A stretch of DNA of 40,781 bases from assembly GCA_964538005.1 (NCBI GenBank), contig CAZIDO010000002.1:1-40781 (forward strand), given 5' to 3'. The position numbers and the translations under genes are program-made. This stretch comes from an uncultured Muribaculaceae bacterium (GTDB lineage: Bacteria; Bacillota_I; Bacilli_A; RF39; UBA660). Positions 22,583-39,412 of the stretch are shown here, one piece after another. Every line of letters begins with the position of its first letter. The stretch's first letter is position 1. Under the pieces are notes generated by a model, which was not told the origin of the DNA, did not search any database, and saw only the letters and a program-made list of their open reading frames with translations.

Positions 22583-23008
22583 TTAATGTATTTCTGGGCA
22601 TTCACCAGGTGCTGGCTGATAAAAGCAATGGCCTTTATATCTTCCGGTATTGTCTTGATCCCACCAAGTTGCCTTACATGCCTGACCTGTTGTTGGAGCA
22701 TAAAACCACAACGCATTTGTTGCTGGATGAAAGTATTCTCCTTTAATCACGCGGTCAGCTAGTCTTTTTTCTAAAGTCGTAGGATTACTAAAAAATAACG
22801 GACTATCTTTTCCAGAAAAACCTCCTGGGGTTTGATAAATCACTTCAGGAATTGTTCTTGTGTTTTTGAAAGTCAAACAGTTAGCAATGCCTCTGTTAAC
22901 GACAACGTTACCAACCATCAGCATTCCGAGGTCACCTTCCCCAATAGCTTCTGCTCGCATTAGACGAGCTAACATATCACGGTCTTTATCTGTCGATTGT
23001 ATAATCAT
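22583..23008 (-). CDS. SleB/CwlJ-family cell-wall (spore cortex-lytic) hydrolase
   Basis: MLARLMRAEAIGEGDLGMLMVGNVVVNR ... QTPGGFSG ... is the Hydrolase_2 (SleB/CwlJ) signature. No signal peptide, so CwlJ-like. Confidence 0.85.
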   Translation of the reverse strand: MIIQSTDKDRDMLARLMRAEAIGEGDLGMLMVGNVVVNRGIANCLTFKNTRTIPEVIYQTPGGFSGKDSPLFFSNPTTLEKRLADRVIKGEYFHPATNALWFYAPTTGQACKATWWDQDNTGRYKGHCFYQPAPGECPEIH

Positions 23009-24267: not shown

Positions 24268-24683
24268 AGAAAAATTTGAAAAAACTGGCGTTAAAGGGAA
24301 GCAGTTATTGGTGATGGTGTATATTCAGAAAAAGATAATTTGGAATATTGTAATAATACGGATATAAAAAATGTAAGTATTGTCCTTTTAAAGGGCGATT
24401 ATAAAGAAAATAGTAAAACGAAAACATATAGTGTGAAAATTAAAGATGAAGTTCATATTCAACATATGGATTATATGAAAATAGAAAAATTTGAAAACCT
24501 ATATCATGAAAGATATAAAATTTAAGCGAAGAATGCCGAACTTAAAAACAACTATAATTATGGGAATGCGGATTCCTGTGGAAAACTAGGCATTACAATA
24601 CGAGGGGCAACTACGCTCTTTTTAACCAATATAAAAAGAATAATTAAATTAAGCGAAGAAAAGAACAAGAATATAGGCTGAAG
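24268..24683 (+). mobile_element. Degraded C-terminal remnant of an IS1182-like (DDE) transposase gene
   Basis: Translations ..AVIGDGVYSEKDNLEYC.., ..KTKTYSVKIKDEVHIQHMDYMKIEKFENLYHERYKI*AKNAELKNNYNYGNA..GITIRGATTLFLTNIKRIIKL match the conserved C-terminus of IS1182-type transposases. The remnant carries a frameshift near 24300, an internal deletion and an in-frame TAA. The N-terminal two thirds are absent. Confidence 0.6.
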
Positions 24684-24769
24684 TGTAGCTTATAGCTCTT
24701 TATTTTGTTCACTTTTTCAGCAGTCTCTCAAAAAGGTCCCTATTTTTTTAAACATGATGCCATAATAAA

Positions 24770-24797
24770 AACACGACAATTGTAAAGCGTGTTTTTT
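24770..24797 (+). terminator. Rho-independent terminator-like hairpin
   Basis: Stem AACACG/CGTGTT around a 12-nt loop, then a T-run (24792-24797). The loop contains ACAATTGT. Confidence 0.45.
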
Positions 24798-24897
24798 GCG
24801 CTGGTTCGGGTACATAACAAAGCAATGAAACCCAATTAACGCATCAAATGCCAATTTGAAACTAAAAAATTTATTTTTATTCTCTTAAAACTAACCA

Positions 24898-25239
24898 TCA
24901 GTTGTTAAAAATAAAATTCAATAAACAAAAATTAGAATTAGAGCAATTTATTTCGTTACATTTCCTTTTTTTATTTTTACATACACAAATAGTATAATTT
25001 AATGACTTCGGAATTCTTAATGAGTAATTACCACATAAGTTAGTTATTGTGCTGGCAATCTTTAATCCACATTGATATATAGTTACCTTAGCGCATGACA
25101 GTCCAACAATACATTCTTTTTCTTTTGAGTAATACATACAAGTACCACATAAAATCAATTCATCTTCTAAAATCAAGTCTAAATTTATCTCATTATTATT
25201 TACAAATATTTTTTTAGACGTTGTAAAAGTCGAATTCAT
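24898..25239 (-). CDS. Small Cys-rich protein (113 aa, 11 Cys) with a CarboxypepD_reg-like beta-sandwich pattern
   Basis: Its start lies 1 nt after the upstream stop (TAAaATG), which suggests coupling. The pattern ...AKVTIYQCGLKIASTITNLCGNYSLRIPKSLNYTICV resembles the domain repeated in the upstream gene. No signal peptide. Confidence 0.55.
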   Translation of the reverse strand: MNSTFTTSKKIFVNNNEINLDLILEDELILCGTCMYYSKEKECIVGLSCAKVTIYQCGLKIASTITNLCGNYSLRIPKSLNYTICVCKNKKRKCNEINCSNSNFCLLNFIFNN

Positions 25240-25240
25240 T

Positions 25241-26101
25241 TTAAATAATCTCTGATTTTTTAGATTTCACGATATATGTACCATTAGTAACACTACCAAA
25301 CATGTATCTTCCATTAGTGTTTGTATAGGTGTTTGCCGTAAGAATCTCATTAATACCATTTATTCTGTATAAGCCCACAAAGGCATTTGGTACTACTATT
25401 CCTGAAATTGTTTTGACTTGTCCTGAAACCGTTGAACCAATATTCCCGACACTGCTTTTTAGTGACATATCCCCATTAAATTTTTGTTTATCAGATAACT
25501 CAACATTAGATACCTCTTCCGAATTATATCCATCTTTCTCATAGGAAAGTGTATACGTCCCATTATCAATATTTTCAATTATGAACTCGCCATCTTTAAT
25601 GCTTGTAGTTGTTGCTTTTAAATTACCGTTTTCATTAGTCCCTTGGTATAAAAGTATTTCAGCGCCTACTAAATATGCCCCTGTATTAAAATCTTTTATT
25701 TTCCCGTAAATTACATTTTTAGACATTTTAGCATTAGGCGTTATTACTAAGTTCATTGTTACTGGAATAATTGTCGAAATCGGTAAAGTAAGCCCTACTG
25801 ATAAGATATAACCATCTTTAACCGCAGATATTAGATATACACCAAGTGGTAAACTTCCAATTGTATAACTTCCATCGCCATTTGTCACCGTATGATTATA
25901 CGGAGTACCATCGCTTTTAAAAACTTTAACCGTTGCGCCACTAACAACATTTCCTGTTAGGAAAGTAGTATCATATACTTTTCCTTTGACACTTCCTGTG
26001 GTAATTGTTGTAGCATTACTTAGATTTAAATTAATATCCTGTTCACTATTTTTTAATTCAAATGATTCTGACGCTGATAATTCCAATTTATCACTATTCA
26101 T
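25241..26101 (-). CDS. Protein with three tandem CarboxypepD_reg-like (prealbumin-fold) domains, no signal peptide
   Basis: The pattern repeats three times: GKVYD..VSGATVKVFKSDGTPYNHTVTNGDGSYTIGSLPLGVYLISAVKDGY; GKIKD..LVGAEILLYQ...TTTSIKDGEFIIENIDNGTYTLSYEKDGY; GQVKT..VPNAFVGLYR...TYTNTNGRYMFGSVTNGTYIVKS. RBS GAGGAGGG. Confidence 0.75.
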   Translation of the reverse strand: MNSDKLELSASESFELKNSEQDINLNLSNATTITTGSVKGKVYDTTFLTGNVVSGATVKVFKSDGTPYNHTVTNGDGSYTIGSLPLGVYLISAVKDGYILSVGLTLPISTIIPVTMNLVITPNAKMSKNVIYGKIKDFNTGAYLVGAEILLYQGTNENGNLKATTTSIKDGEFIIENIDNGTYTLSYEKDGYNSEEVSNVELSDKQKFNGDMSLKSSVGNIGSTVSGQVKTISGIVVPNAFVGLYRINGINEILTANTYTNTNGRYMFGSVTNGTYIVKSKKSEII

Positions 26102-26260
26102 TTGTATCCCTCCTCGTATTATATAATATGGTTCTTTTTATTTATTGATAAGGTCATCTTAATTATAATTTTCTAATGCTTACTGTAGGATAATTAATTT
26201 CAAAATAATAATCACTAAACCAAATTATTCAAAAATTCACAAGAGTGGTTTTATGTAATA

Positions 26261-26288
26261 ACCACATTTACATACTCCTCATATTATA
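26261..26288 (+). promoter_or_regulatory. Sigma-K-like (late mother-cell) promoter candidate
   Basis: AC (26261-26262), 17-nt spacer, CATAttaTA (26280-26288). This matches the B. subtilis-type AC-N16-17-CATAnnnTA pattern, 33 nt upstream of ATG 26322. The match is low-information in AT-rich DNA. Confidence 0.35.
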
Positions 26289-26294
26289 TTTTAG

Positions 26295-27308
26295 ATGAAA
26301 CAGTTGAAAGGAAGGATAGTAATGTATATAAAATCAAGTCTTAATTTAAATACTAAAGGAATTTATAATAACATGACGGTACGAAACAATGAATATCATT
26401 TACTTGATGATACTAGTAAGATATATAAATACGATGAAAAATTTAACTTTGTAGATACAGAAAAACTAGATAGAAACTTTAAGTTGTTGACTTATAATGA
26501 AAATGATTACATTTATTTAATGTCTTTAGAAAACAGTTCTAAAAATCTAAAAAAAGTTAATTTTAATTATGAAGAATATGCTGATTTAATAATAAAAAAC
26601 ACACTTTTAAAAATACACAATCTAAAAGACATTTATTATGATAAGTACCATAGCCGATATTTAATCGCTGATAAAAGGCATGTTTTTTCCATTGATAAAG
26701 AAGGAAACTTTTTAAAAAATGAAGTTCTTAATGATGAATTCTATGATTTAAAAATTGACATCGATTGTTGCCAAAAAGAAGAAATAATAAATCCAAAAGA
26801 TTTTAGTTTCACGGCTGTTGGCACAGATGGAAAATATAAATATGTCGCCTATACAAAAAACAAATCAGCATTTATTGCTAAAATATCAGAAAATGGTTCT
26901 AAAATAGATGATGTGTATGTGGGCGATAATATTGTAGTTAATTCCATCGTCTTTAATAATAAAAAAATGTTAGCCTTAGCTAATGATAAAAAAAATGATA
27001 TTATCTACGAAATTGAATACGATTTATCGAAAATAATAAATCCTAAACTCGAAGAAATTATTAATAAACTTATTGAACTATTAAATAATGTGTCTATAAA
27101 TGAAGTAGGGGTATCAACAATCATCAATACCGAAATGGAAAAAGTAAAAAAAATCATGGAAACAACAAAGGATCCAAACATTATATTAGAAGCCAACAAT
27201 TCTGCCACAAAAATGATTACAGAGGCTGTTGGTTTAGAAGATGCGCAGTACAATAATTTATTAATAATATTAGAAACCATAAAAGAATTAGAGTCATATT
27301 TAAATTAG
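26295..27308 (+). CDS. Hypothetical protein: beta-rich N-domain plus the C-terminal helical module shared with the giant and the 81-aa protein
   Basis: The likely start is ATG 26322, after GAAAGGAAGGA. The N-terminal roughly 240 aa show propeller-like strand repeats. The C-terminal 87 aa (27045-27305) align with 33841-34086 and with the giant's C-terminus. No signal peptide. Confidence 0.7.
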   Translation: MKQLKGRIVMYIKSSLNLNTKGIYNNMTVRNNEYHLLDDTSKIYKYDEKFNFVDTEKLDRNFKLLTYNENDYIYLMSLENSSKNLKKVNFNYEEYADLIIKNTLLKIHNLKDIYYDKYHSRYLIADKRHVFSIDKEGNFLKNEVLNDEFYDLKIDIDCCQKEEIINPKDFSFTAVGTDGKYKYVAYTKNKSAFIAKISENGSKIDDVYVGDNIVVNSIVFNNKKMLALANDKKNDIIYEIEYDLSKIINPKLEEIINKLIELLNNVSINEVGVSTIINTEMEKVKKIMETTKDPNIILEANNSATKMITEAVGLEDAQYNNLLIILETIKELESYLN

Positions 27309-27333
27309 TGATTATTAATTTTTATACCAAACT

Positions 27334-27359
27334 AAAAAAGGAAAATTTTCCTTTTTTTT
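27334..27359. terminator. Palindromic A/T-flanked hairpin (bidirectional terminator-like)
   Basis: AAAAAAGGAAAATTTTCCTTTTTT lies between the convergent genes 26295-27308 and 27436-33675. Confidence 0.5.
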
Positions 27360-27394
27360 AGTGCATATAACTAAGGCCCATTTTTACCATAACT

Positions 27395-27426
27395 AAAAAG
27401 CAAATAAGATTTTTAAACTTATTTGC
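27395..27426 (-). terminator. Rho-independent terminator of the giant gene
   Basis: On the minus strand, stem GCAAATAAG/CTTATTTGC with a 9-nt loop is followed by TTTTT. Confidence 0.65.
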
Positions 27427-27435
27427 TAATTACAA

Positions 27436-30400
27436 TTATTCATTAGTATATATTTTTTTTAAAATCAAACTTAGTTTATTCCTTGAAATAGTTTCAAATA
27501 GACTAAGCGTTATTATCATTTTTGTTATAGAGTCATTAATCCTAATAATCATGCTAGGATCTTTACTTTTCGCTAAAATAGTTTTAAGTTTATTAATTTC
27601 TGAAATAATAATATTATAAACAGAAAATTCTTCCGTTGCAATTACCATTAAGAATCTTATTAATTCAGGCGTTATAGTGTCTACAATTGATGTATATACC
27701 GCTTTAGACGTAGCTGTCTGATAATGTGTTTGCTCGTTTAAATCTTGGTATTGATACGCTACAAACGATTCATTTTTAATATTTAAACCAGTTCTAACCG
27801 CTTTAACATCAAAACCAATTGCCATAATCATTCCACTACTGATATTAGGAAGAACTAAATCCTCAATATTTCCTTGTACCGAAATATTATCAATCGTTAT
27901 TGAATTAGTTATAATTTCATAACGTTCATCAATTATATCCGTTAATTTAAGATTAGTAAAACTAATTGGTGCATCATTAAATAAATAAATATCGAAATGA
28001 TTAATATCATTTAAAACAAGAACTTTTTTAGAAAAATCTTTATGAATTTCCAAAAGTGGTACCAGAAAAGGTGTTACTGAAGTGACTAGTGGATAACTTT
28101 TTAAACTTTCCGTTATTTCCCTTCCTTGCTCATCTAAATATGTATAATTAATATGAGCATATTCAATAATATTATCAGCTACTGTCCTTCCCTTTAAATC
28201 AAACGTTAAAATGACATAATCATCCTGCAATAAAGGTCCAATATAAATTCCTTCGGTTAAATCTCCTTCAATTTTTTTCCCATCCCGTTTTAATGTTCCT
28301 GGAACAAAACTATATTCCGTTGGAATTGGACTATTAATGCTTACATCGTAAGTTACCTTAAAACCTTTATTTATTCCAATAATTCTTGCTTGAAGCGTTT
28401 CACCAACCATTACTTCATTGCGGTTAGCGTCTAATATAAGATCCATCTTAGGAATAATACTATCTACAATATCCGTAGTAGTTTCCGCCCACACTTCCTT
28501 TTGAATAAATACATTATTTAAATCAGTATAGTGATACTCTAATTTTACTTTATTAAGTGCCGCATTTTTCACACTTTTAGCCTTAACTTGATAAGTCAAA
28601 ATATGTGATTCATTAATCTTTAACTTTTCAAATTCAATACCATATAAAATATTTAAATCACTTGGAACATTATCAATTATTAAACTGTTTGCAACAAGTT
28701 CAAAAGCATCATCAAGAAAATCGGTAATTGTAATCGCTTCCGCATCCACGCTTCCAATATTAGTCATTTTAATTGTAAAATCAAGTGTTTCCTTAAGCCC
28801 TGCCATCTTATCAGCTGATTTTTCTAAGGAAATAAGAGCAATATCTTTTTCTAAAATATTAGTCGTAGTTGAATTACTCATTACGCCCCTGTAATTAATG
28901 TCGCCTAAACTATCAGTATAACTATAAGACACATTAGCAAAATTAATAATATTAGCTCCACTTATAGTCGCCATAGCATCAAATTTTACCGTCTTCTCTT
29001 CGCCTGGATTAATAGTTCCAACCGAAATAGAAGCTACCACTTCATTTTGTGATATCATTCCGTTATTATCAATAATTTGAATTGTATTTGGAATTATAGT
29101 ATAGTTATCAATCAAATAATTATCTAATTTTATATCATTTAAAACAACATTCCCATCATTTCTAAAATTAAAACTAAAAGCATTAATTTCCTCTAAATAT
29201 AAATTAGTTTTACTTACTTTTTGATCAACATTTATAATAACCGAATCTTTATCCTTAACCGTTAAATAAACAGGATTACTCATAGATTGTTTTTTAATAA
29301 TTTGATCTAAATTGTTTTGGTATGAATAAGCAACAGAAGCTTCATTTTTAATATTATCACCACTAGCTAACGGAATAGCTATAAATTCAATTACCAATTC
29401 CTCTTTCGGTAACAATTTATTAATGTTAATTCCTCTAATTAAATCACTAGCAATAACACTGTCGCCAATTTTAATTGACCCTGTTTTTAAAATAAATTCA
29501 ATTGGAAGATAATCCTTAACCGAAATATTAACAGCCTCTTTATTGCCATTATTTCTAATCGTTAAATAAAACATAACTTCATTAGTTACCGAAACGATTG
29601 TTGGATGGGCTTCTTTAATAATAACCACATCAGCTACCGTCTCTTCATAAACATTAGTAATTGAAGCATTACTTTGTGCGGTCATTTTAACTAATTTGCT
29701 ATTTTCATTAGTATACTCATAAGTTGCATCAACAATGTTTTTAATTGTTGTCCCTACCTTTTTAGCAAACGTTGAAAAAACAATATCAACTTTAGAATTA
29801 GGATTTATAGATACAATAGAAATATTGTTTGGTGAATAACTAGATTTTACCCCATCAATAGTTAAAGTATCATCTATGTACTCATACTCACCCGGTAAAA
29901 TATCAGTTAAAATAATATTTTGGGCATTTGTATTTCCTACGTTAGTAACCGTTAGGACAACATCATCCGTATCATTAAGTAGCCTATTTAAAGTCTCTAT
30001 TTTTGTTATCGTGAGTATTGCCTTTAACCCTTCTGTAATATTAGTATAATCCTTGTTACTGTAATTAGTATGAGTAATTTTATTAGCCAAAACATCAGTG
30101 TATGAAAAACTTACTTGAGCTTCATTTAAAACATTTGATTTATACGCTAAAGCTCTTACCTTAAAACGCAATGTTTTAGTTTGATGAGCTAAGATTTTTT
30201 CTAATTTTATCCCCTTAGTAATATTTTGAGCATTTGCCAAGCCATCAATAGTTAATGAATTTTCAATAAATGCATATTCATTCGGCAAACGATCTAAAAT
30301 TACTATTTCTTTTGCGTCAACATCCGTATCATTTAAAAGCTCAATTACAAAAGTATTCTCTTCATTAAGCTTAACCGTTTCCAATAAGTGTGATAACGTT

Positions 30401-33400
30401 ATAGAAACATTGGCAACTTTCTTTTCAATAATTGAAGTTAAGATAGGAATGCTGGAAATTGTTTCAGAAATTATTTCACCATTATTAGGGTCGTATTCAT
30501 AATTTGTTATAGCTGTATTTTTAATATTTGTTCCTATCGTTTGGCCAAGAGTATCAAATGATATTCGTTTTTTCTGATTAGGTAAAATAGTATCTAAATT
30601 AATTCCACCTTCTATTTGATTAGATGAAGCAACCCCATCTATTACTAAACTATTACTTATAATTGTGTAATGTGGATCTAAAATATCAATAACGACAACA
30701 TTATTAGCCGCAATATTACCGATATTTTGAACTTCCAAGGTAAAAGTATTTTTTTCATTAAGAAAAATAGTATCGTATAAAGCTGTTTTTTTAGTAATCA
30801 GCGTTGCTTCTTTTTTTTCATTTATACTAGTATATATATAATTACTAACACTAGATGCGACAATTTTTATATTATCTTTATTAAAATATTCGTAGCTTGA
30901 ACTAGCCTGATTAGAAATATCATTACCTAAGGCTCCAGCAATCGCCATAAATTTAATGGTTTTAGTTTGATTAGCTGCCATCGGACCAATATCTAAACCA
31001 ACTTCTATATCACCTGAAACATTTACCCCATCAACTGTTATTGAATTGTCTTTTAATGTATATTTACTATTTAAAACATCGGTTATCTTTACAACATCAG
31101 CTGACTTATTACCAATATTGGTAACCTTTAAAATAAACTCGGCATCTTCGCCTAAAAATACCTCGGGATTAGTGCAGTCTTTATCTATTTTAATAATAGC
31201 CTCTTCCATTTGTCCTATTTCATTTTTCCATCTATTACTACTACTTGTTTGTGTAATCATCGAGCCACTTTCATTTTCATAACTATAAGTTGCATAAGCC
31301 GTATTATATACATCTGTTCCAGCTTTTACTGCATTTGCCGAAAATTCAACCAAAGATTCCTGATTAGCTAAAATATTATCGATAGATATTCCTGTTTTAA
31401 TGTTTCCCGTCACTGATTTACCATTAACCATAATCGTATTAGGTAATATCTCGTAATTATCTGGAAGATCATCCCTAAAACTTATGTTGTTAGTGCTTAC
31501 GTTCCCTGTATTTCTTACATCAATACTAAAATGAACAATATCATTAAGTGCATAAATTGCTTTACTAGTATGTTTTTCTAGTGTTAAATTAGCCATCTTA
31601 ATTTTACTTATGTGAAAAGTTACGACATTACTGTTAGCCTGATTAGTAACCTTAACCCCAGCTAAGTTCGTATAATCATACTGCGCAAAAGCCGTATTTT
31701 TAATATTTCGTAATTCTCTTTTTCCTAAAACGGTATATCCAATAGTTACGGAATCTAATGGGTTTAAATCCTTTATAGTGATTCCGGAAACAATATTATC
31801 GCTTGTCTTAACATTATCAATGACTACACTTCCAAGAACAAATTCTAGTCCATTGGGTATAATGTTAAATACTTTAATATTTTGTAACTTGATAGTCCCA
31901 GTATTTACAAGTAATAAAGCAACCGTCGTCATATCGTTTTCATATAAATTGACTCTTCCTGCTGACTGATCAATCGTCAAACTTTGTAAAAAAGCTTTCG
32001 TAATGTCAATAGAAACATCATTACTTGAAATAGTCGTCTCCATTGAAGTACTATTTAAGGAATATTGTACCTTAGCTGATGCTTTAGTTATTATCCCTGT
32101 TTTTGTGGTTTTAGGTAATGCGGAAAACGAAATTGTTTTTTCCTCTTCAATTCCTAAATTATTTATCGCTAAACCAGTCGTTATATCATCACTGACTGCC
32201 GTGCCATTTACTTTAATTGAACCCGGTTTAAAAGTTAACTCGTTATTTAAATCATCAGTAATAACAATATTAGATAGTTCAACAGTTCCCGTATTCTTAA
32301 GAATAATTGTAAAAAGAACCTCTTCATTCAAATAATAAGATAATTTATTACTATTTTTAGTTAAGCTAGCGCCAAAAGCTGGTTCTCCAAGAACATGCAC
32401 AAAGACCTCATTAGTTTGCGCATCAAGTATCTTAGCTTTGCCATCTCGTTCATAGTGCCCTGCTAAAATAGCGCTATTAGGAATCCTTGTGGCAATAGTT
32501 TTCGCCCTAACTTGGTATTCTATTTTATAAGTTTGATTAGCTGTTAAATCACCAAGCTCGGTGACCTCCATAAAATTACCGGTCGTTACGCCATTTATTT
32601 TTGTGCTGCCATCGATATATTCAAAAAATGGATCCAAATTATCTCTAACGCTTACGTGATTTAAAGTCATATTACCAATGTTTTTAAGATTTACGGTAAA
32701 ATTTAAAATATCATTTACTTTGCAAGTGGTTTTATCCACGCTCTTTGTATATAAAACAGCCACATCTTCTCTAGAAATAACATCTACTAAAACGATATTA
32801 CTTGTTTTTCTAATTGTCTGCGTACCTCCATCAGGGTCAGTATAGTTTGCACTAATCATTACGGAGTTTGGTATTTTACTTTTCATAACACTGCCTATAA
32901 CTCTAAAGGTTACAATCGATTCGTTGCTTCCAGCAATCCCTCCAACCATTACATTAGATAAATCGTTTTCGCTACTTGTGGTACCATTTATAGAAATACT
33001 ACCTTGAACCAATGTTAAACCAGAATCAAGCTGATCGTTTAATATAACATTATTTAATGTGACAAAAGCTGTATTTTTAATTGAAACTGTATATTCTAAT
33101 TCTTCGTTTTCAAAAGCTACTGTTTTATTACAAGTTTTAATAACTTCAAAATCACCCGTTGTTTTATCAATTATATTAAATATAAGTTTAGTGCTTTTTT
33201 TAAGTAAAGTTTCTTTTTCACCCGTTGCATTTATAAAGCTTGCTGAACCATCAACAAGATTTGCTGCATAGCCAGTGGAAGTAGCGGTTACATTAAATGT
33301 CACAACTTTCGTACCTCCGATATTGACGTTTCCAATCACAATTGGATTATTGAGATTATCATTGTTTTTTACACCATCTATTACTAATGAATTATCGACA

Positions 33401-33675
33401 AAAGTAAAATGATTGTCTAATACATTAGTTAATTGTAAATCAGAAAGGTTTGTGTTTCCTGTATTTTGAACTGTAATTGTAAATTTAAGAATATCATCTT
33501 TAAAACAATTAACTTTGCTTGATATCATATCAATCGTATAATTACCAAGCGGGGCGTCCACTATTTTCAATGTTGATATTTCACTATCCATATTGGCAAT
33601 AGATGTTAAAACTTCGTCCATTTGATTTACTTCCTGAGAATTTTTCTCTAAGGAAGAATTAAAATCAGATTTCAT
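27436..33675 (-). CDS. Giant (2079 aa) protein of about 15 tandem DUF11-type ('conserved repeat domain') modules with a C-terminal helical module; no signal peptide, TM or LPXTG
   Basis: Uninterrupted 6.2-kb ORF with RBS AAGGATGG. The recurring roughly 130-aa unit has hallmarks such as ..L.FTI.V.NTGN....N..I.D.L......V..S..IDGV.......GI.I..I...Q......F.A.A...G..I.N.A...Y.Y... The N-terminus is hydrophilic (MKSDFNSSLEKNSQEVNQMDEV...). Confidence 0.9.
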   Translation of the reverse strand: MKSDFNSSLEKNSQEVNQMDEVLTSIANMDSEISTLKIVDAPLGNYTIDMISSKVNCFKDDILKFTITVQNTGNTNLSDLQLTNVLDNHFTFVDNSLVIDGVKNNDNLNNPIVIGNVNIGGTKVVTFNVTATSTGYAANLVDGSASFINATGEKETLLKKSTKLIFNIIDKTTGDFEVIKTCNKTVAFENEELEYTVSIKNTAFVTLNNVILNDQLDSGLTLVQGSISINGTTSSENDLSNVMVGGIAGSNESIVTFRVIGSVMKSKIPNSVMISANYTDPDGGTQTIRKTSNIVLVDVISREDVAVLYTKSVDKTTCKVNDILNFTVNLKNIGNMTLNHVSVRDNLDPFFEYIDGSTKINGVTTGNFMEVTELGDLTANQTYKIEYQVRAKTIATRIPNSAILAGHYERDGKAKILDAQTNEVFVHVLGEPAFGASLTKNSNKLSYYLNEEVLFTIILKNTGTVELSNIVITDDLNNELTFKPGSIKVNGTAVSDDITTGLAINNLGIEEEKTISFSALPKTTKTGIITKASAKVQYSLNSTSMETTISSNDVSIDITKAFLQSLTIDQSAGRVNLYENDMTTVALLLVNTGTIKLQNIKVFNIIPNGLEFVLGSVVIDNVKTSDNIVSGITIKDLNPLDSVTIGYTVLGKRELRNIKNTAFAQYDYTNLAGVKVTNQANSNVVTFHISKIKMANLTLEKHTSKAIYALNDIVHFSIDVRNTGNVSTNNISFRDDLPDNYEILPNTIMVNGKSVTGNIKTGISIDNILANQESLVEFSANAVKAGTDVYNTAYATYSYENESGSMITQTSSSNRWKNEIGQMEEAIIKIDKDCTNPEVFLGEDAEFILKVTNIGNKSADVVKITDVLNSKYTLKDNSITVDGVNVSGDIEVGLDIGPMAANQTKTIKFMAIAGALGNDISNQASSSYEYFNKDNIKIVASSVSNYIYTSINEKKEATLITKKTALYDTIFLNEKNTFTLEVQNIGNIAANNVVVIDILDPHYTIISNSLVIDGVASSNQIEGGINLDTILPNQKKRISFDTLGQTIGTNIKNTAITNYEYDPNNGEIISETISSIPILTSIIEKKVANVSITLSHLLETVKLNEENTFVIELLNDTDVDAKEIVILDRLPNEYAFIENSLTIDGLANAQNITKGIKLEKILAHQTKTLRFKVRALAYKSNVLNEAQVSFSYTDVLANKITHTNYSNKDYTNITEGLKAILTITKIETLNRLLNDTDDVVLTVTNVGNTNAQNIILTDILPGEYEYIDDTLTIDGVKSSYSPNNISIVSINPNSKVDIVFSTFAKKVGTTIKNIVDATYEYTNENSKLVKMTAQSNASITNVYEETVADVVIIKEAHPTIVSVTNEVMFYLTIRNNGNKEAVNISVKDYLPIEFILKTGSIKIGDSVIASDLIRGININKLLPKEELVIEFIAIPLASGDNIKNEASVAYSYQNNLDQIIKKQSMSNPVYLTVKDKDSVIINVDQKVSKTNLYLEEINAFSFNFRNDGNVVLNDIKLDNYLIDNYTIIPNTIQIIDNNGMISQNEVVASISVGTINPGEEKTVKFDAMATISGANIINFANVSYSYTDSLGDINYRGVMSNSTTTNILEKDIALISLEKSADKMAGLKETLDFTIKMTNIGSVDAEAITITDFLDDAFELVANSLIIDNVPSDLNILYGIEFEKLKINESHILTYQVKAKSVKNAALNKVKLEYHYTDLNNVFIQKEVWAETTTDIVDSIIPKMDLILDANRNEVMVGETLQARIIGINKGFKVTYDVSINSPIPTEYSFVPGTLKRDGKKIEGDLTEGIYIGPLLQDDYVILTFDLKGRTVADNIIEYAHINYTYLDEQGREITESLKSYPLVTSVTPFLVPLLEIHKDFSKKVLVLNDINHFDIYLFNDAPISFTNLKLTDIIDERYEIITNSITIDNISVQGNIEDLVLPNISSGMIMAIGFDVKAVRTGLNIKNESFVAYQYQDLNEQTHYQTATSKAVYTSIVDTITPELIRFLMVIATEEFSVYNIIISEINKLKTILAKSKDPSMIIRINDSITKMIITLSLFETISRNKLSLILKKIYTNE
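27691..33540 (-). repeat. About 15 tandem, highly diverged protein-level DUF11 domain repeats (each roughly 125-135 aa)
   Basis: I counted 15 occurrences of the (V/I)xNxGN ... IDG(V/L) ... NxAxxxY core by reading the translation. The repeats are not conserved at the nucleotide level. Confidence 0.7.
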
Positions 33676-33840
33676 ATAAATATACCATCCTTTATTATAT
33701 ATTTTTTAAGCATATAAATATCTCATCCCCTTTCATGATAACTTATGCACCTTTAAAAATATAATTAAGTTACATCGTCTAAAAATAAAATAACAAAGCA
33801 AAAAAAACATATTTAAAAAAATTAAATATGAATTTCCATC

Positions 33841-34086
33841 TTAATTTAAATAAGGCTTTATCAGTTCCAATTTTTGATTCAATAAAGTCTCTAGGTTATT
33901 AACTTCTTTAATTAAATTATTAACCGATTGATTAACGAGTAATATCTCTTCCGGTGTTCCGCCAAGATCAATCACTTTTTGGATTTTTAAAGCTTCCTGA
34001 TCTAATAAACTTGATATTGCCTCTTGTTCATCAGCAATCGAGGAAGCAATGTTATCAATCGCCTCACTAAAAGTTGTGTCTTTCAT
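33841..34086 (-). CDS. 81-aa all-helical protein consisting solely of the shared module
   Basis: RBS AAGGAGGAAAT. The sequence IDNIASSIADEQEAISSLLDQEALKIQKVIDLGGTPEEILLVNQSVNNLIKEVNNLETLLNQKL aligns with the C-termini of the 337-aa and 2079-aa proteins. Confidence 0.65.
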   Translation of the reverse strand: MKDTTFSEAIDNIASSIADEQEAISSLLDQEALKIQKVIDLGGTPEEILLVNQSVNNLIKEVNNLETLLNQKLELIKPYLN

Positions 34087-34156
34087 ATTTCCTCCTTTTT
34101 TAAGATATATATTGATTTTCTATTTATATCTGCCTTGTCTTTTTATCAATAATTAA

Positions 34157-34321
34157 GACAATTGTTTTTCAATTATATTGTATGAATAGTTTTAAAATAG
34201 AACAATATAAATCGCCTAAATAAAAATTTAACAATCAATTTTATCCAGGGCTTATTTAAATATATATTAGAAGAAAAGAAATTTTTAAATGCGTATTTAG
34301 TAAAATAGAACAATTGTTTTT
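34157..34321. repeat. Repeated boxes in the divergent intergenic region (TAAAATAGAACAAT x2; ACAATTGTTTTT x2 with the palindromic core ACAATTGT)
   Basis: TAAAATAGAACAAT occurs at 34193-34206 and 34301-34314. ACAATTGT occurs at 34158-34165 and 34310-34317, each followed by TTTT. Confidence 0.35.
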
Positions 34322-34364
34322 TCCTAAAAAACATATAATGTAATGAAATAATTGGAGGGATTTT

Positions 34365-34724
34365 ATGAAGAAAATTAAAATTAAATGTTTGTTATGTGAC
34401 AGCTTAGATATCTATAAATACCATATATATATGTATGATTGCGATGGTAGATTAGTCGAAGATACTGAAACAAAACAAGGCTGTGCTCTTCTAAATGTTG
34501 AGAGGTTAGGATTATACAAAATCATTATAATCCCTAAAGGATGTTTACTTCCGTGTAGGATAGTTAAATGTATTTATATAAATAATGATATTACTAATTT
34601 TCTATTTACTTTTAATAAATTTGTTTGTAAAAGACATTCAATTATTGTAAGGTTAACGGATAAACATTATAAAGGTTTGTCTGTTGCGAAAGGAGAAATG
34701 CATTTATGGAAAATAAAATTGTAA
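34365..34724 (+). CDS. Small Cys-rich protein (119 aa, 8 Cys), beta-sandwich-like
   Basis: RBS TGGAGGGA. Contains IYMYDCDGRLVEDTETKQGCALLNVERLGLYKIIIIPKGC. The C-terminal motif RLTDKHYKGLSVAKGEMHLW is shared with the next ORF's C-terminus. No signal peptide. Confidence 0.55.
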   Translation: MKKIKIKCLLCDSLDIYKYHIYMYDCDGRLVEDTETKQGCALLNVERLGLYKIIIIPKGCLLPCRIVKCIYINNDITNFLFTFNKFVCKRHSIIVRLTDKHYKGLSVAKGEMHLWKIKL

Positions 34725-35257
34725 TTCACATTACCAACGGAGGAGGAAGCACTCAAATTGTTAATGGAAATTATAACATTACCTCATCTACTTTAGGATA
34801 TGATGACACAACAATCGACCCTGCCGCAGTAGAAATAACTGATGCAACCGAAGGCTACGATTTTATGGTTGGTGCTACAGGCGTTCTAACGTTACATGTT
34901 TCTGACGATGGAACAGATGCCGGAGTTCCAATAGTCGGCGCAAAATTTGCCAGATGTGATGCTGAAGGAAAAATCTATGGAGACGAAGTTATATCTGATG
35001 ACTCGGGTAATGCAGTATTTAATCATGTTCCCTTTTCTGCCGAAGAGAATGCCCCAGTGGTTTACTACAAACAAACCGCCTCAGATGGACAGCACACTTT
35101 TGCTGCAGAATTAAAAAATACTACTTTAGCTGAAGAAGCGGTATTAGTTGAATTACAAAATGAAGAAGCGGTACTTAAGAATTTTAAATTAACCGATTTA
35201 AACTATAGCGGCTTACCAATTGCCGATGGTCAAATACATGCAACAGTAGCAGAATAA
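34706..35257 (+). CDS. Ala/Gly/Asp-rich prealbumin/SpaA-like beta-sandwich protein (183 aa), no signal peptide
   Basis: RBS AAAGGAGA. Contains LTLHVSDDGTDAGVPIVGAKFARCDAEGKIYGDEVISDDSGNAVFNHVPF...YYKQTASDGQHTF. Ends in KLTDLNYSGLPIADGQIHA. Visibly more G+C-rich than its neighbours. Confidence 0.7.
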   Translation: MENKIVIHITNGGGSTQIVNGNYNITSSTLGYDDTTIDPAAVEITDATEGYDFMVGATGVLTLHVSDDGTDAGVPIVGAKFARCDAEGKIYGDEVISDDSGNAVFNHVPFSAEENAPVVYYKQTASDGQHTFAAELKNTTLAEEAVLVELQNEEAVLKNFKLTDLNYSGLPIADGQIHATVAE

Positions 35258-35265
35258 TATGCTAG

Positions 35266-35300
35266 ATATTAGATTTGTAAAATAATCTAATATTTTTTTG
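35266..35300 (+). terminator. Rho-independent terminator ending the locus
   Basis: 10-bp stem ATATTAGATT/AATCTAATAT (35266-35275 and 35284-35293) followed by a T-run. Confidence 0.75.
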
Positions 35301-35344
35301 TAAAAGGACAAGAAGTCCTGGCACGATACTTAGCATGCTAAAAC

Positions 35345-35373
35345 TTGTTTGATTAAGGGATGTATGTTATAAT
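35345..35373 (+). promoter_or_regulatory. Sigma-A-type promoter with TG-extended -10
   Basis: TTGTTT (35345-35350), 17-nt spacer ending in TGt, TATAAT (35368-35373). Confidence 0.5.
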
Positions 35374-35397
35374 TTATTTACTAAATGAGAGGAACAT

Positions 35398-35673
35398 ATG
35401 AACTGTGATACGAGATTAAACCAAGAACCTTTTGATATGATTAAAAGTGACGTTAAAAATATAGAATATAGATTAAACGATGAAAAAAGACAATAAATTA
35501 AGATTGGAGATACTATTACGTTTTATCGTAGCCCAGAAGAAATTGGAACTATAAAGGTAATTATTAAAGAACTTAAACATTATGAAAATCCACAAGCAGT
35601 AGTAGATGATACACTTCATCATAAGATAGAACTCAGGAACCTTCTTGGAATTATAACAACGTTTTACATTTAA
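35398..35673 (+). pseudogene. ASCH-domain protein gene interrupted by an in-frame TAA
   Basis: MNCDTRLNQEPFDMIKSDVKNIEYRLNDEKRQ-TAA(35494-35496)-IKIGDTITFYRSPEEIGTIKV... The sequence reads through in the same frame. The RLNDEKR..I..GD.I.F pattern is typical of ASCH proteins. Confidence 0.5.
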
Positions 35674-35836
35674 CTGAAGGATTTAACCGGTTTGAAGAAG
35701 TCTTCCAAGTTATTTTTAAATGTTTTAATTGGTTTATGTTTTATTGTTTTCGGTATCATTTTAGTAATTATCGTAGCTATTCAATGTTTGCTAAAAAACG
35801 ATATAATGTAATAGTACAAAAAATAAAGGAGTTTTT

Positions 35837-37045
35837 ATGAATCAAAGTTGGAAAAAAAAGATGGGACTTTTCTTAAGCAGTCAGGCTATCTCATTATTTG
35901 GGTCATCAATTGTACAATATGCTATCATTTGGTATATTACGTTACAAACACAGTCGGGGATAATGATGACCGTCGCTACTGTATGTGCGTTTATTCCCCA
36001 AGTTTTAATTTCATTATTTGCTGGCGTTTGGGCCGACAAATATAACAAAAAGTTTTTGATTATTTTAGCTGATGCCTCAATTGCTTTATCAACATTAATA
36101 ATTGCAATTATGTTCTTCTTTGGCATCAATGATATATGGTTGTTATTTGCAGTATTATGTATTAGATCATTAGGCAGTGGTATTCAAACTCCAACCGTTA
36201 CATCATTTATTCCAGAAGTAGTACCAGAAAACAAATTAATGCGTGTCAATGGAATCAATACAACAATTCAATCAATTATGTTAATAGTATCACCGGCTAT
36301 TAGTGGAGCATTACTTGCCAATGTTGATTTACAATATATTTTGTTAGTCGATGTTGTAACGGCTATTATTGGTATTATAATTTTCTCATTAGTTAAGGTT
36401 CATTATCCAAAAAGAGAAAAAGAAAAAGTTAATTATTTTAGTTCAATTAAAGAAGGTTTATTTTATACTAAAAACCATAAATTGATTTCTAGGTTATTAG
36501 GCTATTTAGTATTAGCGAATATTTTAATCGCGCCAATGTCTATTCTGACCCCGTTATTAGTTACGAGAACGTTTGGAGCGGAAGCGTGGTATTTAACTTT
36601 CAATGAAATGGTTTTCTTTGTTGGAAACATTATTGGAGGTATTTTAATTGCTACTTGGGGTGGATTTAAAAATAAGGTAAGTACTATTGGTTTAGGCTGT
36701 GTGGTCTGTGGTATATTTGCTATTTGTTTAGGTTTACCAATTAACTTTGTTGTCTATTTAATTTTCATGGGAATTATTGGAATGACAATGCCATTTGTCA
36801 ATACTCCATTTATGACTATTTTCCAGGAAAAGGTTGATAAGGATAAACAAGGAAGAATATTCTCGCTAGTTTCAATTTTAGGTGGGGCAGTTATGCCACT
36901 TTCAATGGTTTTCTATGGTCCTTTAGCAGATCATGTAAAAATTGAATATATTTTAATTGTAACTGGGATTTTATTTGTCATCGGTTCAATTGCAATGGTT
37001 AAAGATCATGTTATTAAAAAGAACTTAGAATCAACTCAAGAATAA
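35837..37045 (+). CDS. MFS transporter (macrolide-efflux/EntS-like subfamily)
   Basis: 402 aa with about 12 TM helices. N-terminal FLSSQAISLFGSSIVQYAIIWYITLQT and GVWADKYNKK are typical of this MFS subgroup. Confidence 0.88.
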   Translation: MNQSWKKKMGLFLSSQAISLFGSSIVQYAIIWYITLQTQSGIMMTVATVCAFIPQVLISLFAGVWADKYNKKFLIILADASIALSTLIIAIMFFFGINDIWLLFAVLCIRSLGSGIQTPTVTSFIPEVVPENKLMRVNGINTTIQSIMLIVSPAISGALLANVDLQYILLVDVVTAIIGIIIFSLVKVHYPKREKEKVNYFSSIKEGLFYTKNHKLISRLLGYLVLANILIAPMSILTPLLVTRTFGAEAWYLTFNEMVFFVGNIIGGILIATWGGFKNKVSTIGLGCVVCGIFAICLGLPINFVVYLIFMGIIGMTMPFVNTPFMTIFQEKVDKDKQGRIFSLVSILGGAVMPLSMVFYGPLADHVKIEYILIVTGILFVIGSIAMVKDHVIKKNLESTQE

Positions 37046-39187: not shown

Positions 39188-39412
39188 ATGAAAATAATTA
39201 GTTTTAAAAAAGTAGAATTAGAAAAATCCAAAATTAAAGCGGTTGCATATATCGAAATTGAAAACCATATAACGGTGGAGGCTCGAATAATTGAAGGCGA
39301 AGACGGTTTATTTGTAGCTTGTAAATATAGTGAATCTTTAGATGATCAAGTTCGGTATAACTATAGTCAAGAGATATCTAGAGTGTTACTTGAAAATTAT
39401 AATCAAGAATAA
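39188..39412 (+). CDS. Small protein with possible SpoVG-like fold
   Basis: KIKAVAYIEIENHITVEARIIEGEDGLFVA resembles the SpoVG core (..MKAIASITLD..FVVHDIRVI.G..GLFVA). The similarity is weak and it is followed by a terminator (about 39411-39436). Confidence 0.35.
   Translation: MKIISFKKVELEKSKIKAVAYIEIENHITVEARIIEGEDGLFVACKYSESLDDQVRYNYSQEISRVLLENYNQE

Follow-up and report, generated by a model that had tools for sequence, protein, structure and literature searches.

A-ENA is an alpha-helical hairpin that builds the isopeptide-crosslinked 'sporesilk' endospore appendages of Bacillus thuringiensis (Nat Commun 2026, PMC13111695). It accumulates in the mother cell, and Bti A-ENA self-assembles from the A-ENA domain alone (PMC13111695). 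In a single sentence, Sleutel, Sogues and Remaut mentioned a class of 'A-ENA fusions', not known from experimental work, whose passengers include PF01345 and SdrD_B (Nat Commun 2026, PMC13111695). All of the characterised members of the ENA family are spore-associated (PMC13111695; PMC12357932). DUF11 domains, also referred to as CLIPPER domains, are found in the appendage proteins of C. taeniosporum (CRD1/2 and P29a/b) and in CrdA-C of B. cereus, some of which were experimentally shown to be associated with spores (PMC5749712).

Here, we analysed a window of 40,781 nucleotides, i.e., the whole stretch of DNA under study, which comes from an uncultured gut bacterium that has a small genome and is RF39-like rather than a Clostridium. 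A giant gene in this window ends in what appears to be an A-ENA module and adjoins an A-ENA subunit gene and, because of these two features, its product is most likely an appendage decoration and not an odd secreted adhesin. We consider it reasonably likely that this product is built into an alpha-helical endospore appendage as a minor subunit that carries a decoration.

The giant gene and its CLIPPER array

The gene (27436–33675, minus strand; 6240 nt) starts with ATG and encodes a protein of 2079 aa (229 kDa), for which an identical protein record exists (P0001). The protein is composed of a 37-aa leader, 15 CLIPPER (DUF11) domains and an 83-aa helical tail. A previous sequence-only reading of this DNA had proposed about 15 DUF11 domains and had allowed that profile searches might not support the family. 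The latter was contradicted by Pfam DUF11 (PF01345; E=1.2e-101, 335 bits against a cut-off of 24.6, 14 stretches) and TIGR01451 (E=5e-104, 340 bits against a cut-off of 24, 13 repeats), and an iterative self-profile delineated exactly 15 abutting domains of 129–134 aa with linkers of 0 aa. According to Pfam, NCBIfam, the self-profile and the alignment, the contiguous array covers residues 38–1996 (27688–33564, minus strand). The amino acid identity between the 15 repeats was 14–36% (mean 24%), TRF detected no nucleotide-level array in the gene, and the short DNA similarities consisted of 20–53-nt motifs with an identity of 60–85%, several of which were spaced at multiples of ~393 nt. The repeats are old and diverged with no nucleotide-level repetition, as had been read from the letters. 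The profile of the 15 repeats matched the CLIPPER crystal structure 9ifr_A (E=1.2e-4; profile positions 6–108 against chain residues 3–106), whose Lys715 and Asn806 fell on conserved columns. A single-sequence AF2 model of domain 15, for which a CnaA-like Ig fold was the question, had a pLDDT <40. The CLIPPER triad comprises a Lys on the first strand, an Asn near the end and a catalytic Asp, and is not universal in the family. A search for such isopeptide-forming residues, which had also been suggested, showed that the intramolecular Lys/Asp/Asn triad was complete in nine of the 15 domains (2, 3, 6, 7, 8, 10, 11, 13 and 15), and both Lys and Asp were absent in four of the six triad-defective domains. 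The nine domains are probably self-stapled by intramolecular Lys-Asn isopeptides.

The leader (residues 1–37; 33565–33675, minus strand) is acidic and hydrophilic with seven acidic and three basic residues, and its hydropathy maximum (Kyte-Doolittle(15)) was 0.68 compared to 2.44 for a thioester-domain protein from the same window that has a real signal peptide. No significant match to the A-ENA profile was obtained in these 37 residues. No signal peptide was found in the 2079-aa protein based on leader composition, hydropathy and the upstream sequence, and there was no LPXTG-type motif near its C-terminus, so that the absence of both a secretion and a sorting signal, which had been noticed before, was corroborated. 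Because an in-frame stop lies 10 codons 5' of the ATG, a hidden signal peptide is impossible, which excludes the earlier reservation that the true start might lie upstream. CLIPPER arrays are mostly stalks of Sec-exported adhesins that are anchored by sortase or in the outer membrane (PMC12617251), and it could be argued on this basis that the giant protein is a fibrillar adhesin of the classical kind, either secreted or wall-anchored, with an error in the annotation of its start or sorting signal, or else that the gene is a decaying pseudogene or an assembly chimera. We regard this set of explanations as highly improbable. Besides the upstream stop, an RBS precedes the ATG (weaker than that of the neighbouring 81-aa gene), the N-terminus is not hydrophobic, the LPXTG-type motif is lacking and the sortase substrate of the same window looks wholly different; as a Sec/sortase adhesin, the protein is contradicted by its own sequence (upstream stop, no signal peptide, no sorting motif). 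Moreover, the 6240-nt ORF was present with 0 internal stops in four other assemblies (contigs L001–L004) from other samples, and it is therefore not an assembly artefact. These copies differed from the gene by 0–37 nt with at most 21 synonymous and 15 nonsynonymous codons; this synonymous excess argues against a pseudogene or a chimera and, judging by the substitutions, the gene is under purifying selection, which agrees with the previously proposed selective maintenance of the array. The earlier premise that DUF11 arrays are normally secreted or wall-anchored holds for most CLIPPER arrays, which are exported stalks (PMC12617251), but arrays that lack a signal peptide are not unusual in spore-formers, e.g., CrdA-C, F-Anchor-3 and a ~2692-aa family (about 2490–2700 aa; P0036, P0043, P0058) that is widespread in Clostridia and Bacillus.

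The helical tail and the 81-aa subunit gene

The tail (residues 1997–2079, core 2009–2073; 27439–27687, minus strand) had been described as amphipathic and helical. The helical character was retained, but its identity had been missed: based on a Bacillus-only HMM, hmmalign, hhalign and AF2, the tail is, as far as such comparisons can tell, a diverged helical hairpin of the A-ENA endospore-appendage polymerisation domain. The A-ENA profile, which was built from Bacillus sequences only, was run on the 232 ORFs of the window and picked three of them, namely an 81-aa protein (E=1.8e-15), the C-terminus of a 328/337-aa protein (residues 248–317, E=1.5e-5) and the giant tail (E=7.4e-5), with the next-best ORF at E=0.38. 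When the tails alone were compared with the Bacillus-only A-ENA using hhalign, the match reached 93.6% (E=2e-7). Pfam A_ENA (PF26595) was absent from the precomputed annotation of the giant tail and of the 328-aa protein, and the tail of a 468-aa variant, which is 58% identical to the giant tail, carries this Pfam call. The moderate E-values, 1e-5 to 1e-4, along with the hhalign result, suggest that both C-termini belong to A-ENA. AF2 with an alignment predicted that the tail is a two-helix hairpin (pLDDT 85.5; helices at model residues 5–46 and 51–87), and the Foldseek results were not significant for so simple a fold (best E=0.87; 9ihh at rank 9, TM 0.66). According to hmmalign, residues E2015/E2016, E2026, K2029, N2047, E2061 and K2067 of the tail correspond to E28/E29, E39, K42, N64, E78 and K84 of Bti A-ENA. 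The IPB2 triad (K/N/E) was invariant in every A-ENA module examined and the IPB3 set (K/E/E) was retained in the giant tail, i.e., two of the five isopeptide residue sets of Bti A-ENA were kept, and IPB1, IPB4 and IPB5 were lost. The N-terminal lock was absent from all three modules, and the passenger stands in its place in the fusions. Because of the missing lock and the reduced isopeptide sets, the assembly geometry may differ.

The giant gene lies directly downstream of the 81-aa gene (33841–34086, minus strand), a single-domain A-ENA gene whose product is presumed to be the major fibre subunit. This gene has a strong RBS (AAGGAGG), and its protein is annotated with Pfam PF26595 A_ENA in the precomputed annotation; its top PDB match was 9ihh_A, 'Ex vivo spore-silk A-ENA fibers' (E=0.0088; residues 3–78 against 11–90, nearly full length). 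Immediately after its stop codon, strand folding revealed a perfect 9-bp A/U hairpin that is followed by a U8 run (33800–33830, minus strand), and the 91-nt region with the hairpin folded at -14.4 kcal/mol (z=-2.66). This element may act as a weak terminator between the subunit gene and the giant gene. A motif scan additionally detected CATAAGTTA, a sigmaK-type -10-like box that is weak alone, 64 nt 5' of the start of the giant gene (33739–33747, minus strand), and no matching -35 was found in the scan.

Neighbouring genes and the sporulation context

A convergent gene (26322–27308, plus strand) encodes a 328-aa protein, or 337 aa from an upstream ATG; the gene callers preferred the 328-aa start, at which an RBS is present. 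The protein has an N-terminal domain of ~240 aa and a C-terminal A-ENA-like hairpin, which matched the giant tail in BLASTP (E=1e-10), and by these comparisons it is a second A-ENA fusion. A full match to the sigmaK consensus (AC-N17-CATAnnnTA) was found 34 nt 5' of the 328-aa start (26261–26288, plus strand), which is suggestive rather than conclusive. On both strands of the whole window, only six such matches were found. The single full match that serves here as promoter evidence is not in front of the giant gene, and CATAnnnTA boxes lie 5' of the other cluster genes; in DNA with 29% GC, however, a promoter motif scan is weak evidence. The 81-aa, 328-aa and 2079-aa proteins have no secretion signal.

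A two-gene unit (24898–26101, minus strand) encodes a 286-aa protein with three CarboxypepD_reg / prealbumin-like domains (Pfam), together with a protein of 113 aa that contains 11 Cys. Hydropathy indicated no signal peptides in these proteins, the Bacillus-only HMM found no A-ENA module in them, and the unit was kept beside the cassette in L001–L004. Both proteins are possibly further spore-surface components, their membership being uncertain. The locus is flanked by small Cys-rich proteins of a kind typical of the coat or exosporium, and they would suit a spore-surface rod whose helical tail docks into a basal layer of the coat or exosporium, like a BclA-like nap or F-Anchor-3, with the 81-aa protein serving as an adaptor. 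The DUF11 spacers of F-Anchor-3, for which insertion into the CsxA exosporium lattice was proposed (PMC12357932), and the presence of DUF11 in the C. taeniosporum appendage proteins point the same way, and the 81-aa protein is only presumed to form fibres since the modules lack the N-terminal lock and three of the five isopeptide sets. Nevertheless, we judge such a rod to be unlikely: the 81-aa protein is homologous to A-ENA over its full length and kept the axial crosslinking residues, CsxA-like, DUF4183 and ExsY/CotY-type domains were not found in the cluster, and the self-assembly of the Bti A-ENA domain alone (PMC13111695) also speaks against it.

The window also encodes a CwlD-like amidase, which aligned over the whole length of the model (E=1.5e-57) but narrowly missed the curated cut-off, and a SleB/CwlJ-family hydrolase. 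The thioester-domain protein with a signal peptide carries a VPVTG motif and lies adjacent to a sortase. To our knowledge, no member of RF39 has been grown in culture, nor has sporulation been demonstrated in any of them. RF39 was predicted to include sporulating species (PMC10868615) and is a mix of these and of predicted non-sporulating ones, which leaves room for a function that is independent of sporulation, in which the A-ENA cassette of a possibly non-sporulating lineage would form an extracellular covalent fibre matrix of vegetative or lysing cells for biofilm formation or host attachment. The cassette sits in differing genomic contexts and has an adjacent IS91 transposase in one contig; it is therefore mobile and its opportunistic use is conceivable, and the promoter evidence for a mother-cell sigma factor is weak. 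However, the CwlD-like and SleB/CwlJ-like genes point to a sporulating host, the characterised ENA members are all spore-associated (PMC13111695; PMC12357932) and export signals are absent from all of the cluster proteins. Both such a matrix or adhesin and the release that it would require, by lysis or by an unrecognised export route, therefore seem quite doubtful to us.

Proposed assembly and comparison with known systems

If the giant protein is a decorated appendage subunit, as we prefer, the 2079-aa, 81-aa and 328-aa proteins would all be produced in the cytoplasm of the mother cell during sporulation, and the 81-aa protein would stack into cross-alpha fibres like those of B. thuringiensis. 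The giant tail would occupy a subunit position within or at the end of such a fibre, where it would be locked by the proximity-induced intermolecular isopeptides K2029-N2047 (catalyst E2026) and K2067-E2016 (catalyst E2015), which would be the equivalents of IPB2 and IPB3, both of them axial bonds of the i→i-1 type. The 15 CLIPPER domains would project from the fibre as a stiff rod of roughly 60–75 nm, an estimate that assumes 4–5 nm per domain, and this rod could be a spacer or an adhesive 'bristle' that leads to spore clumping or gut attachment. Because the RBS of the 81-aa gene is strong, the A/U terminator is weak and the RBS of the giant gene is weaker, we propose that the giant subunit is substoichiometric, and because the appendages would be made in the mother cell and freed at its lysis, neither a signal peptide nor a sorting signal would be needed. 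Of the fibre role that was envisaged in the sequence-only reading, a spore-linked rod or fibre is plausible, but a free-standing fibre is not likely, and the protein is probably a decoration or minor subunit that is covalently built into the 81-aa fibre. On the whole, the observation on which that reading was based was confirmed and its interpretation was partly supported.

By sequence, CLIPPER-array proteins that end in an A-ENA module are widespread. The module was present in 1888 representative clusters, and seven of the eight longest carriers that were examined were DUF11 arrays that bear it at their C-terminal end. P0120, P0135, P0211 and others share the order of an N-terminal passenger and a C-terminal A-ENA, and a B. 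mycoides plasmid (p479) encodes four DUF11 proteins in succession that all end in A-ENA hairpins. Size variants, which the earlier reading had advised looking for, do exist, as a three-domain, 468-aa version of the cassette was found elsewhere.

Compared to the fibrillar adhesins with CLIPPER stalks (Costa et al., Protein Sci 2025; PDB 9IFR), the giant protein shares the domain family, the Lys/Asp/Asn isopeptide logic and the tandem stalk, whereas their signal peptide, adhesive head and sorting domain are all lacking. The C. taeniosporum appendage proteins, CrdA-C and the ~2490–2700-aa family are likewise DUF11 repeat proteins of spore-formers without a signal peptide, but their identity to the giant protein is ~25% and confined to the repeats, and the members of the ~2490–2700-aa family share a conserved N-terminal domain of ~350 aa and lack a helical tail. 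F-Anchor-3 of F-ENA (DUF4183 + 0–4 DUF11 + CsxA-like) is also a spore-appendage accessory with a variable DUF11 spacer and no signal peptide (PMC12357932), although its module is DUF4183 / CsxA-like with 0–4 DUF11 domains instead of A-ENA with 15. The A-ENA 'ruffle' / A-BclA (A-ENA + collagen-like + C1q) follows the same concept, with A-ENA as the module through which a long fibrous passenger is attached to the fibre or inserted into it; in A-BclA, an N-terminal A-ENA is followed by a trimeric collagen stalk and a C1q head, while here A-ENA is C-terminal and the rod is monomeric, Ig-like and without a recognisable head domain. With Bti A-ENA / A-ENA1 (PDB 9ihh), both the 81-aa protein and the giant tail have in common the alpha1-loop-alpha2 hairpin, the IPB2 residues and, in part, those of IPB3, at an identity of about 20–25%; neither of them has the N-terminal lock (Bti residues 2–14), the K76/K77 donors (IPB4, IPB5) or the IPB1 catalyst, and the toxin genes and pBtoxis-like plasmid context of Bti are absent. 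The closest likeness is to the A-ENA fusions with SdrD_B / OmcB (PF01345 = DUF11), which also join an A-ENA hairpin to a passenger of Ig-like repeats, cluster with single-domain A-ENA genes, lack a signal peptide and conserve crosslinking residues of the K42/N64/E39 type. In contrast to these, the host is RF39-like and not Bacillus or Clostridium, the tail is diverged enough for Pfam A_ENA to miss it, and the Cys-rich C-terminal extension of the B. mycoides fusions is absent. With 15 CLIPPER domains in 2079 aa, against at most 1335 aa and 3–7 Pfam DUF11 stretches (in one case with seven SdrD_B stretches) in the longest others that were examined, the protein is unusually large for an 'A-ENA fusion', a class that has barely been described.

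The repeat rod and its gene

The 2079-aa protein, in which CLIPPER (DUF11) domains stand between a leader and a helical tail, is encoded by a 6240-nt gene on the minus strand (27436-33675; ATG start, 229 kDa). Pfam DUF11 recognised its repeats in 14 stretches (E=1.2e-101, with the related DUF7507 and DUF7619 models also matching) and NCBIfam TIGR01451 recognised 13 (E=5e-104), while an iterative self-profile resolved precisely 15 domains (residues 38-1996) that abut one another and measure 129-134 aa each, flanked by a leader of 37 aa and a tail of 83 aa. The self-profile gives the count of 15 that had been proposed in a sequence-only reading of this DNA. That reading had also considered the repeats to be too diverged for repetition at the nucleotide level, which aligns well with their pairwise amino-acid identity (14-36%, mean 24%) and with the result of Tandem Repeats Finder, which detected no array in the gene. 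The residual DNA matches inside the gene were short (20-53 nt, 60-85% identity), and several of them were spaced at multiples of ~393 nt.

In a search with the 15-repeat profile, the CLIPPER crystal structure 9IFR (PMC12617251) was matched at E=1.2e-4, and its Lys715 and Asn806 align with columns that the repeats conserve; a profile was needed for this, as phmmer with a single CLIPPER domain gave no CLIPPER match in the PDB. A check for isopeptide-forming residues, which had been proposed earlier, revealed a complete Lys/Asp/Asn triad in nine of the 15 domains. Lys and Asp were jointly missing from four of the six triad-defective domains, as would be expected of a triad that works as one functional unit.

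The ends of the protein correspond to their earlier description as a hydrophilic, acidic N-terminus without a signal peptide and a C-terminus without a sorting signal: the leader contains seven acidic and three basic residues and no hydrophobic stretch, and no LPXTG-type motif was found near the C-terminus. An in-frame stop 10 codons 5' of the ATG and the ribosome-binding site AAGGATGG 5' of the same ATG speak against a hidden upstream start with a signal peptide. Furthermore, other ENA and Logan samples yielded four additional contigs with this ORF, in which it has no internal stops. The five-contig comparison showed 0-37 nucleotide differences, with at most 21 synonymous versus 15 nonsynonymous codons and a dN/dS that was roughly estimated at ~0.2. 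Mis-annotation of the gene is essentially excluded, since the sequence itself speaks against it. The description in the sequence-only reading was therefore right in every checkable respect (ORF, 15 domains, ends, no DNA array).

The helical tail as an A-ENA module

A-ENA is an endospore appendage of alpha-helical type from B. thuringiensis sv. israelensis (Bti). According to PMC13111695, its fibre is a two-start cross-alpha assembly of stacked helical hairpins, in which each subunit is held in place by as many as ten isopeptide bonds to other subunits; it is produced in the mother cell, whose lysis releases it. Bti A-ENA self-assembles in E. coli. One helical module was common to the tail of the 2079-aa protein, the C-terminus of a convergent ORF and an entire 81-aa protein. 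The 81-aa ORF (33841-34086, minus) lies immediately upstream of the 2079-aa gene and carries the precomputed Pfam annotation PF26595 'A_ENA'; the best PDB match of its product was the A-ENA structure 9ihh_A (E=0.0088, nearly full length). The convergent ORF (26322-27308, plus) encodes 328 aa, or 337 aa from an upstream ATG at 26295, and ends in an A-ENA-like hairpin; BLASTP of the tail against the 337-aa form gave E=1e-10. Its N-terminal ~240 aa had no Pfam or NCBIfam match, and the protein is a second, different A-ENA fusion as predicted from its C-terminal hairpin.

An independent A-ENA HMM was built from Bacillus only (Bti A-ENA, A-ENA1, B. tropicus paralogues and four B. mycoides DUF11 proteins) and run on every stop-to-stop ORF of 40 aa or more that the window contains (232 in total). 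The top three were the suspected modules (81-aa protein, 1.8e-15; 328/337-aa protein, 1.5e-5; tail, 7.4e-5), and the fourth-ranked ORF had E=0.38. Similarly, hhalign of a tails-only profile with one made from Bacillus A-ENA (single-domain and N-terminal modules) covered both helices (probability 93.6%, E=2e-7, 71 columns). Pfam's A_ENA model did not match the tail of the 2079-aa protein; it does match the tail of a shorter homologue, which is 58% identical to it. A profile was needed here too, as phmmer with the tail alone found no A-ENA match in the PDB. AF2 with a small alignment predicted a two-helix hairpin (pLDDT 85.5). A Foldseek search with this model returned nothing significant (9ihh ranked 9th, TM 0.66), which we attribute to the non-specificity of the method for so simple a fold as a helical hairpin. 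The single-sequence AF2 model of domain 15 and the tail was too poor for use (pLDDT 40). The idea that the leader is half of an A-ENA helix was rejected, and the leader was left without an assignment because there was no significant A-ENA profile match.

The modules were aligned to Bti A-ENA in order to map its five isopeptide residue sets (IPB1-IPB5). The IPB2 set (donor K42, acceptor N64, catalyst E39) was invariant across all of the aligned modules, its equivalents in the 2079-aa protein being K2029, N2047 and E2026. The IPB3 set (K84, E29, E28) was retained in the tail (K2067, E2016, E2015) and, almost completely, in the 81-aa protein (K/Q/E). In the published fibre (PMC13111695), both sets make axial i->i-1 bonds inside one protofilament. 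The IPB4 and IPB5 donors, the IPB1 catalyst and the N-terminal lock of Bti A-ENA were all absent from the aligned modules.

Size variants, neighbouring genes and proposed assembly

No close relative of the complete 2079-aa protein turned up in a genome scan, and its next-best matches were 24-26% identical over the repeats only, with no close orthologue. The word-indexed homologue searches returned only three proteins for the 81-aa query and two for the C-terminal 473-aa query. Loci L006-L013 nevertheless contain a gene for an 82-aa A_ENA protein, which shares 78% identity with the 81-aa one, and directly after it a gene for a 468-aa protein annotated CLIPPER + A_ENA and colinear with domains 13-15 and the tail (52% identity). 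The DNA identity of the two cassettes, i.e., the small gene with its downstream fusion gene, was 73-80%, intergenic region included, and the flanking genes were unrelated. In L006, the context is rpsB-tsf … signal peptidase, and in L008 (355-1533) an IS91-family transposase directly adjoins the cassette. Unrelated contexts together with this transposase suggest that the cassette is horizontally mobile. Size variants, for which a search had been proposed earlier, thus exist: judging by their annotated domains, the homologous cassettes differ in CLIPPER number, three in the 468-aa version versus 15 in the 2079-aa version.

An exhaustive profile search placed the A-ENA module in 1888 representative clusters, many of them singles of 76-140 aa and many of them long proteins that carry it at their very C-terminal end. 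Among the best 150 of these clusters, the longest protein had 1335 aa, and of the eight longest, seven were DUF11 arrays (3-7 Pfam stretches) and one was an SdrD_B array. By this comparison of lengths, the 2079-aa protein is exceptionally long for the CLIPPER/A-ENA fusion class, which already exists but is unstudied. B. mycoides plasmid p479 (NZ_CP036025.1, 6201-14009) encodes four consecutive DUF11 proteins (678/554/241/217 aa), each with an A-ENA-like hairpin and then a Cys-rich C-terminus (…CC, …CDFCS, …CSGCK, …CCGCK); a gene for a RICIN-domain protein comes after them. Two other DUF11 proteins (P0120, 1177 aa; P0135, 718 aa) likewise end in an A-ENA hairpin. Widespread DUF11 giants (P0036, P0043, P0049, P0058 and others) are of near-constant length, ~2690-2700 aa in Clostridia and ~2490 aa in the B. 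cereus group; they have no signal peptide and have a common conserved ~350-aa N-terminal domain. Their N-terminal motif …TTTNGA.TFTGNTLG… also opens the 678- and 554-aa A-ENA-hairpin proteins of B. mycoides, which hints that these ~2490-2700-aa giants may also be spore-surface proteins.

In all of the long contigs, the cassette adjoins a two-gene unit (24898-26101, minus) without signal peptides, whose 286-aa product has three CarboxypepD_reg/prealbumin-like domains and whose 113-aa product has 11 cysteines; both may be further spore-surface components. Divergent from the 81-aa gene are overlapping 119-aa (8 Cys) and 183-aa ORFs (34365-35257, plus) without family matches, the 183-aa product being Gly/Asp/Ala-rich in contrast to its AT-rich surroundings. 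The single terminator-like site in the scanned 24500-35900 (35075-35093) lies inside the 183-aa ORF on the opposite strand. A scan for sigma70 promoters and terminators was uninformative in this 29%-GC DNA (81 sites seen versus 73 expected). The sigmaE and sigmaK motifs were scanned by script. Only six full sigmaK-consensus matches (AC-N17-CATAnnnTA) occur in the window and only one of them near the cluster, at 26261-26288, which puts it 34 nt before the 328-aa gene. The 81-aa, 2079-aa and 286-aa genes have CATAnnnTA boxes in front of them. These sites are only suggestive of sporulation control.

For a spore fibre, the 81-aa protein would be the major subunit, as its gene has a strong AAGGAGG ribosome-binding site. 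This site, the perfect 9-bp A/U hairpin with a U8 run after the stop codon of the 81-aa gene, and the weaker ribosome-binding site of the 2079-aa gene would together result in a low ratio of giant to small subunits, making the giant comparatively rare. Its tail would insert into or cap the fibre, fixed there by IPB2- and IPB3-type bonds, and the 15 CLIPPER domains would project as a rod of an estimated ~60-75 nm, with the rise of such a domain assumed to be 4-5 nm. In the 328-aa protein the fibre would have another decorated subunit, and the function could be spore-spore or spore-host adhesion. Less probable alternatives are that the rod is anchored in a coat or exosporium layer and that the fibre is used outside sporulation.

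Host lineage and comparison with known systems

A Clostridium host, which was considered because of the 29% GC and the first matches, was rejected by a scan of housekeeping genes. The housekeeping product of 10784-12280 (minus) shared 77-84% identity with proteins from uncultured gut 'Bacilli'/'Tenericutes' MAGs, Firmicutes bacterium CAG:822 and Candidatus Coprosoma, and the closest genomes (loci L017-L096) were uncultured RF39 / CAG-822 gut MAGs with complete chromosomes of 1.26-1.54 Mb. Coprosoma is the GTDB genus CAG-822 of the family CAG-822, order RF39 (PMC8035907), for which sporulating and non-sporulating species have both been predicted from genomes (PMC10868615). A CwlD-like amidase (18216-18881, plus) matched its model over the full length (E=1.5e-57; 195 bits, below the NCBIfam cut-off of 221.55) and lies ~11 kb downstream of an ecfA-ecfA'-ecfT-truA-rplM-rpsI run, which presumably precedes cwlD in B. 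subtilis as well. A 141-aa SleB/CwlJ-family hydrolase (22583-23008, minus) is preceded by two CATAnnnTA boxes. By family, both are predicted spore-cortex genes in an RF39-like genome. An Abi_2 abortive-infection-like gene (18935-19876, plus) is located between the amidase and an HtrA-type protease, and the match of a 74-aa SpoVG-like ORF (39188-39412, plus) to the SpoVG model is limited to the N-terminal half of that model.

Taken together, we tentatively propose, as possible rather than probable, that RF39 gut bacteria, relatives of the wall-less Mycoplasmatales with ~1.3-1.5-Mb genomes, form endospores with a covalently crosslinked A-ENA fibre that is studded with 229-kDa, ~60-75-nm CLIPPER rods. 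Intramolecular (CLIPPER) and intermolecular (A-ENA) isopeptide chemistry would be combined in one polypeptide, and the number of rod domains (three versus 15) would be tunable and horizontally mobile, affecting spore clumping or host attachment and hence transmission. If true, it would give the RF39 lineage its first spore-appendage system and would be the largest A-ENA decoration among those examined. The A-ENA system would then extend to abundant, uncultured, reduced-genome gut bacteria in which sporulation is a genomic prediction. The 6.2-kb gene takes up ~0.4% of a 1.5-Mb genome for a predicted spore-fibre decoration, which argues for the importance of spores, and of their adhesion or clumping, to how this lineage is transmitted. 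Self-stapled Ig rods and a self-crosslinking polymerisation domain in one natural polypeptide would also be an attractive scaffold for protein materials. The interpretation in the sequence-only reading, a long rod-like array, was partly supported and was substantially sharpened by the A-ENA tail: a huge 'surface' repeat protein without an export signal becomes, more specifically, a predicted decorated subunit of a recently discovered kind of appendage.

The same stretch encodes a 297-aa thioester-domain (TED) protein with an overlapping gene for a 158-aa sortase (16770-18120, plus), which by their motifs are a classical covalent-adhesin/sortase pair in a reduced genome. This TED protein has a signal peptide, a VPVTG sorting motif and an adjoining sortase, whereas the proteins of the A-ENA cluster are all without a signal peptide. 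'A-ENA fusions' with SdrD_B/OmcB (PF01345) passengers appear in one sentence of the A-ENA paper (PMC13111695), in agreement with the long proteins with a C-terminal module in our profile search; a CLIPPER array with a C-terminal A-ENA is a widespread yet unstudied architecture. By its predicted architecture, the 2079-aa protein is an extreme new example of this known, experimentally untouched kind of A-ENA fusion, and what makes it interesting is mainly the lineage of its host and the pairing of two isopeptide chemistries within a single polypeptide.
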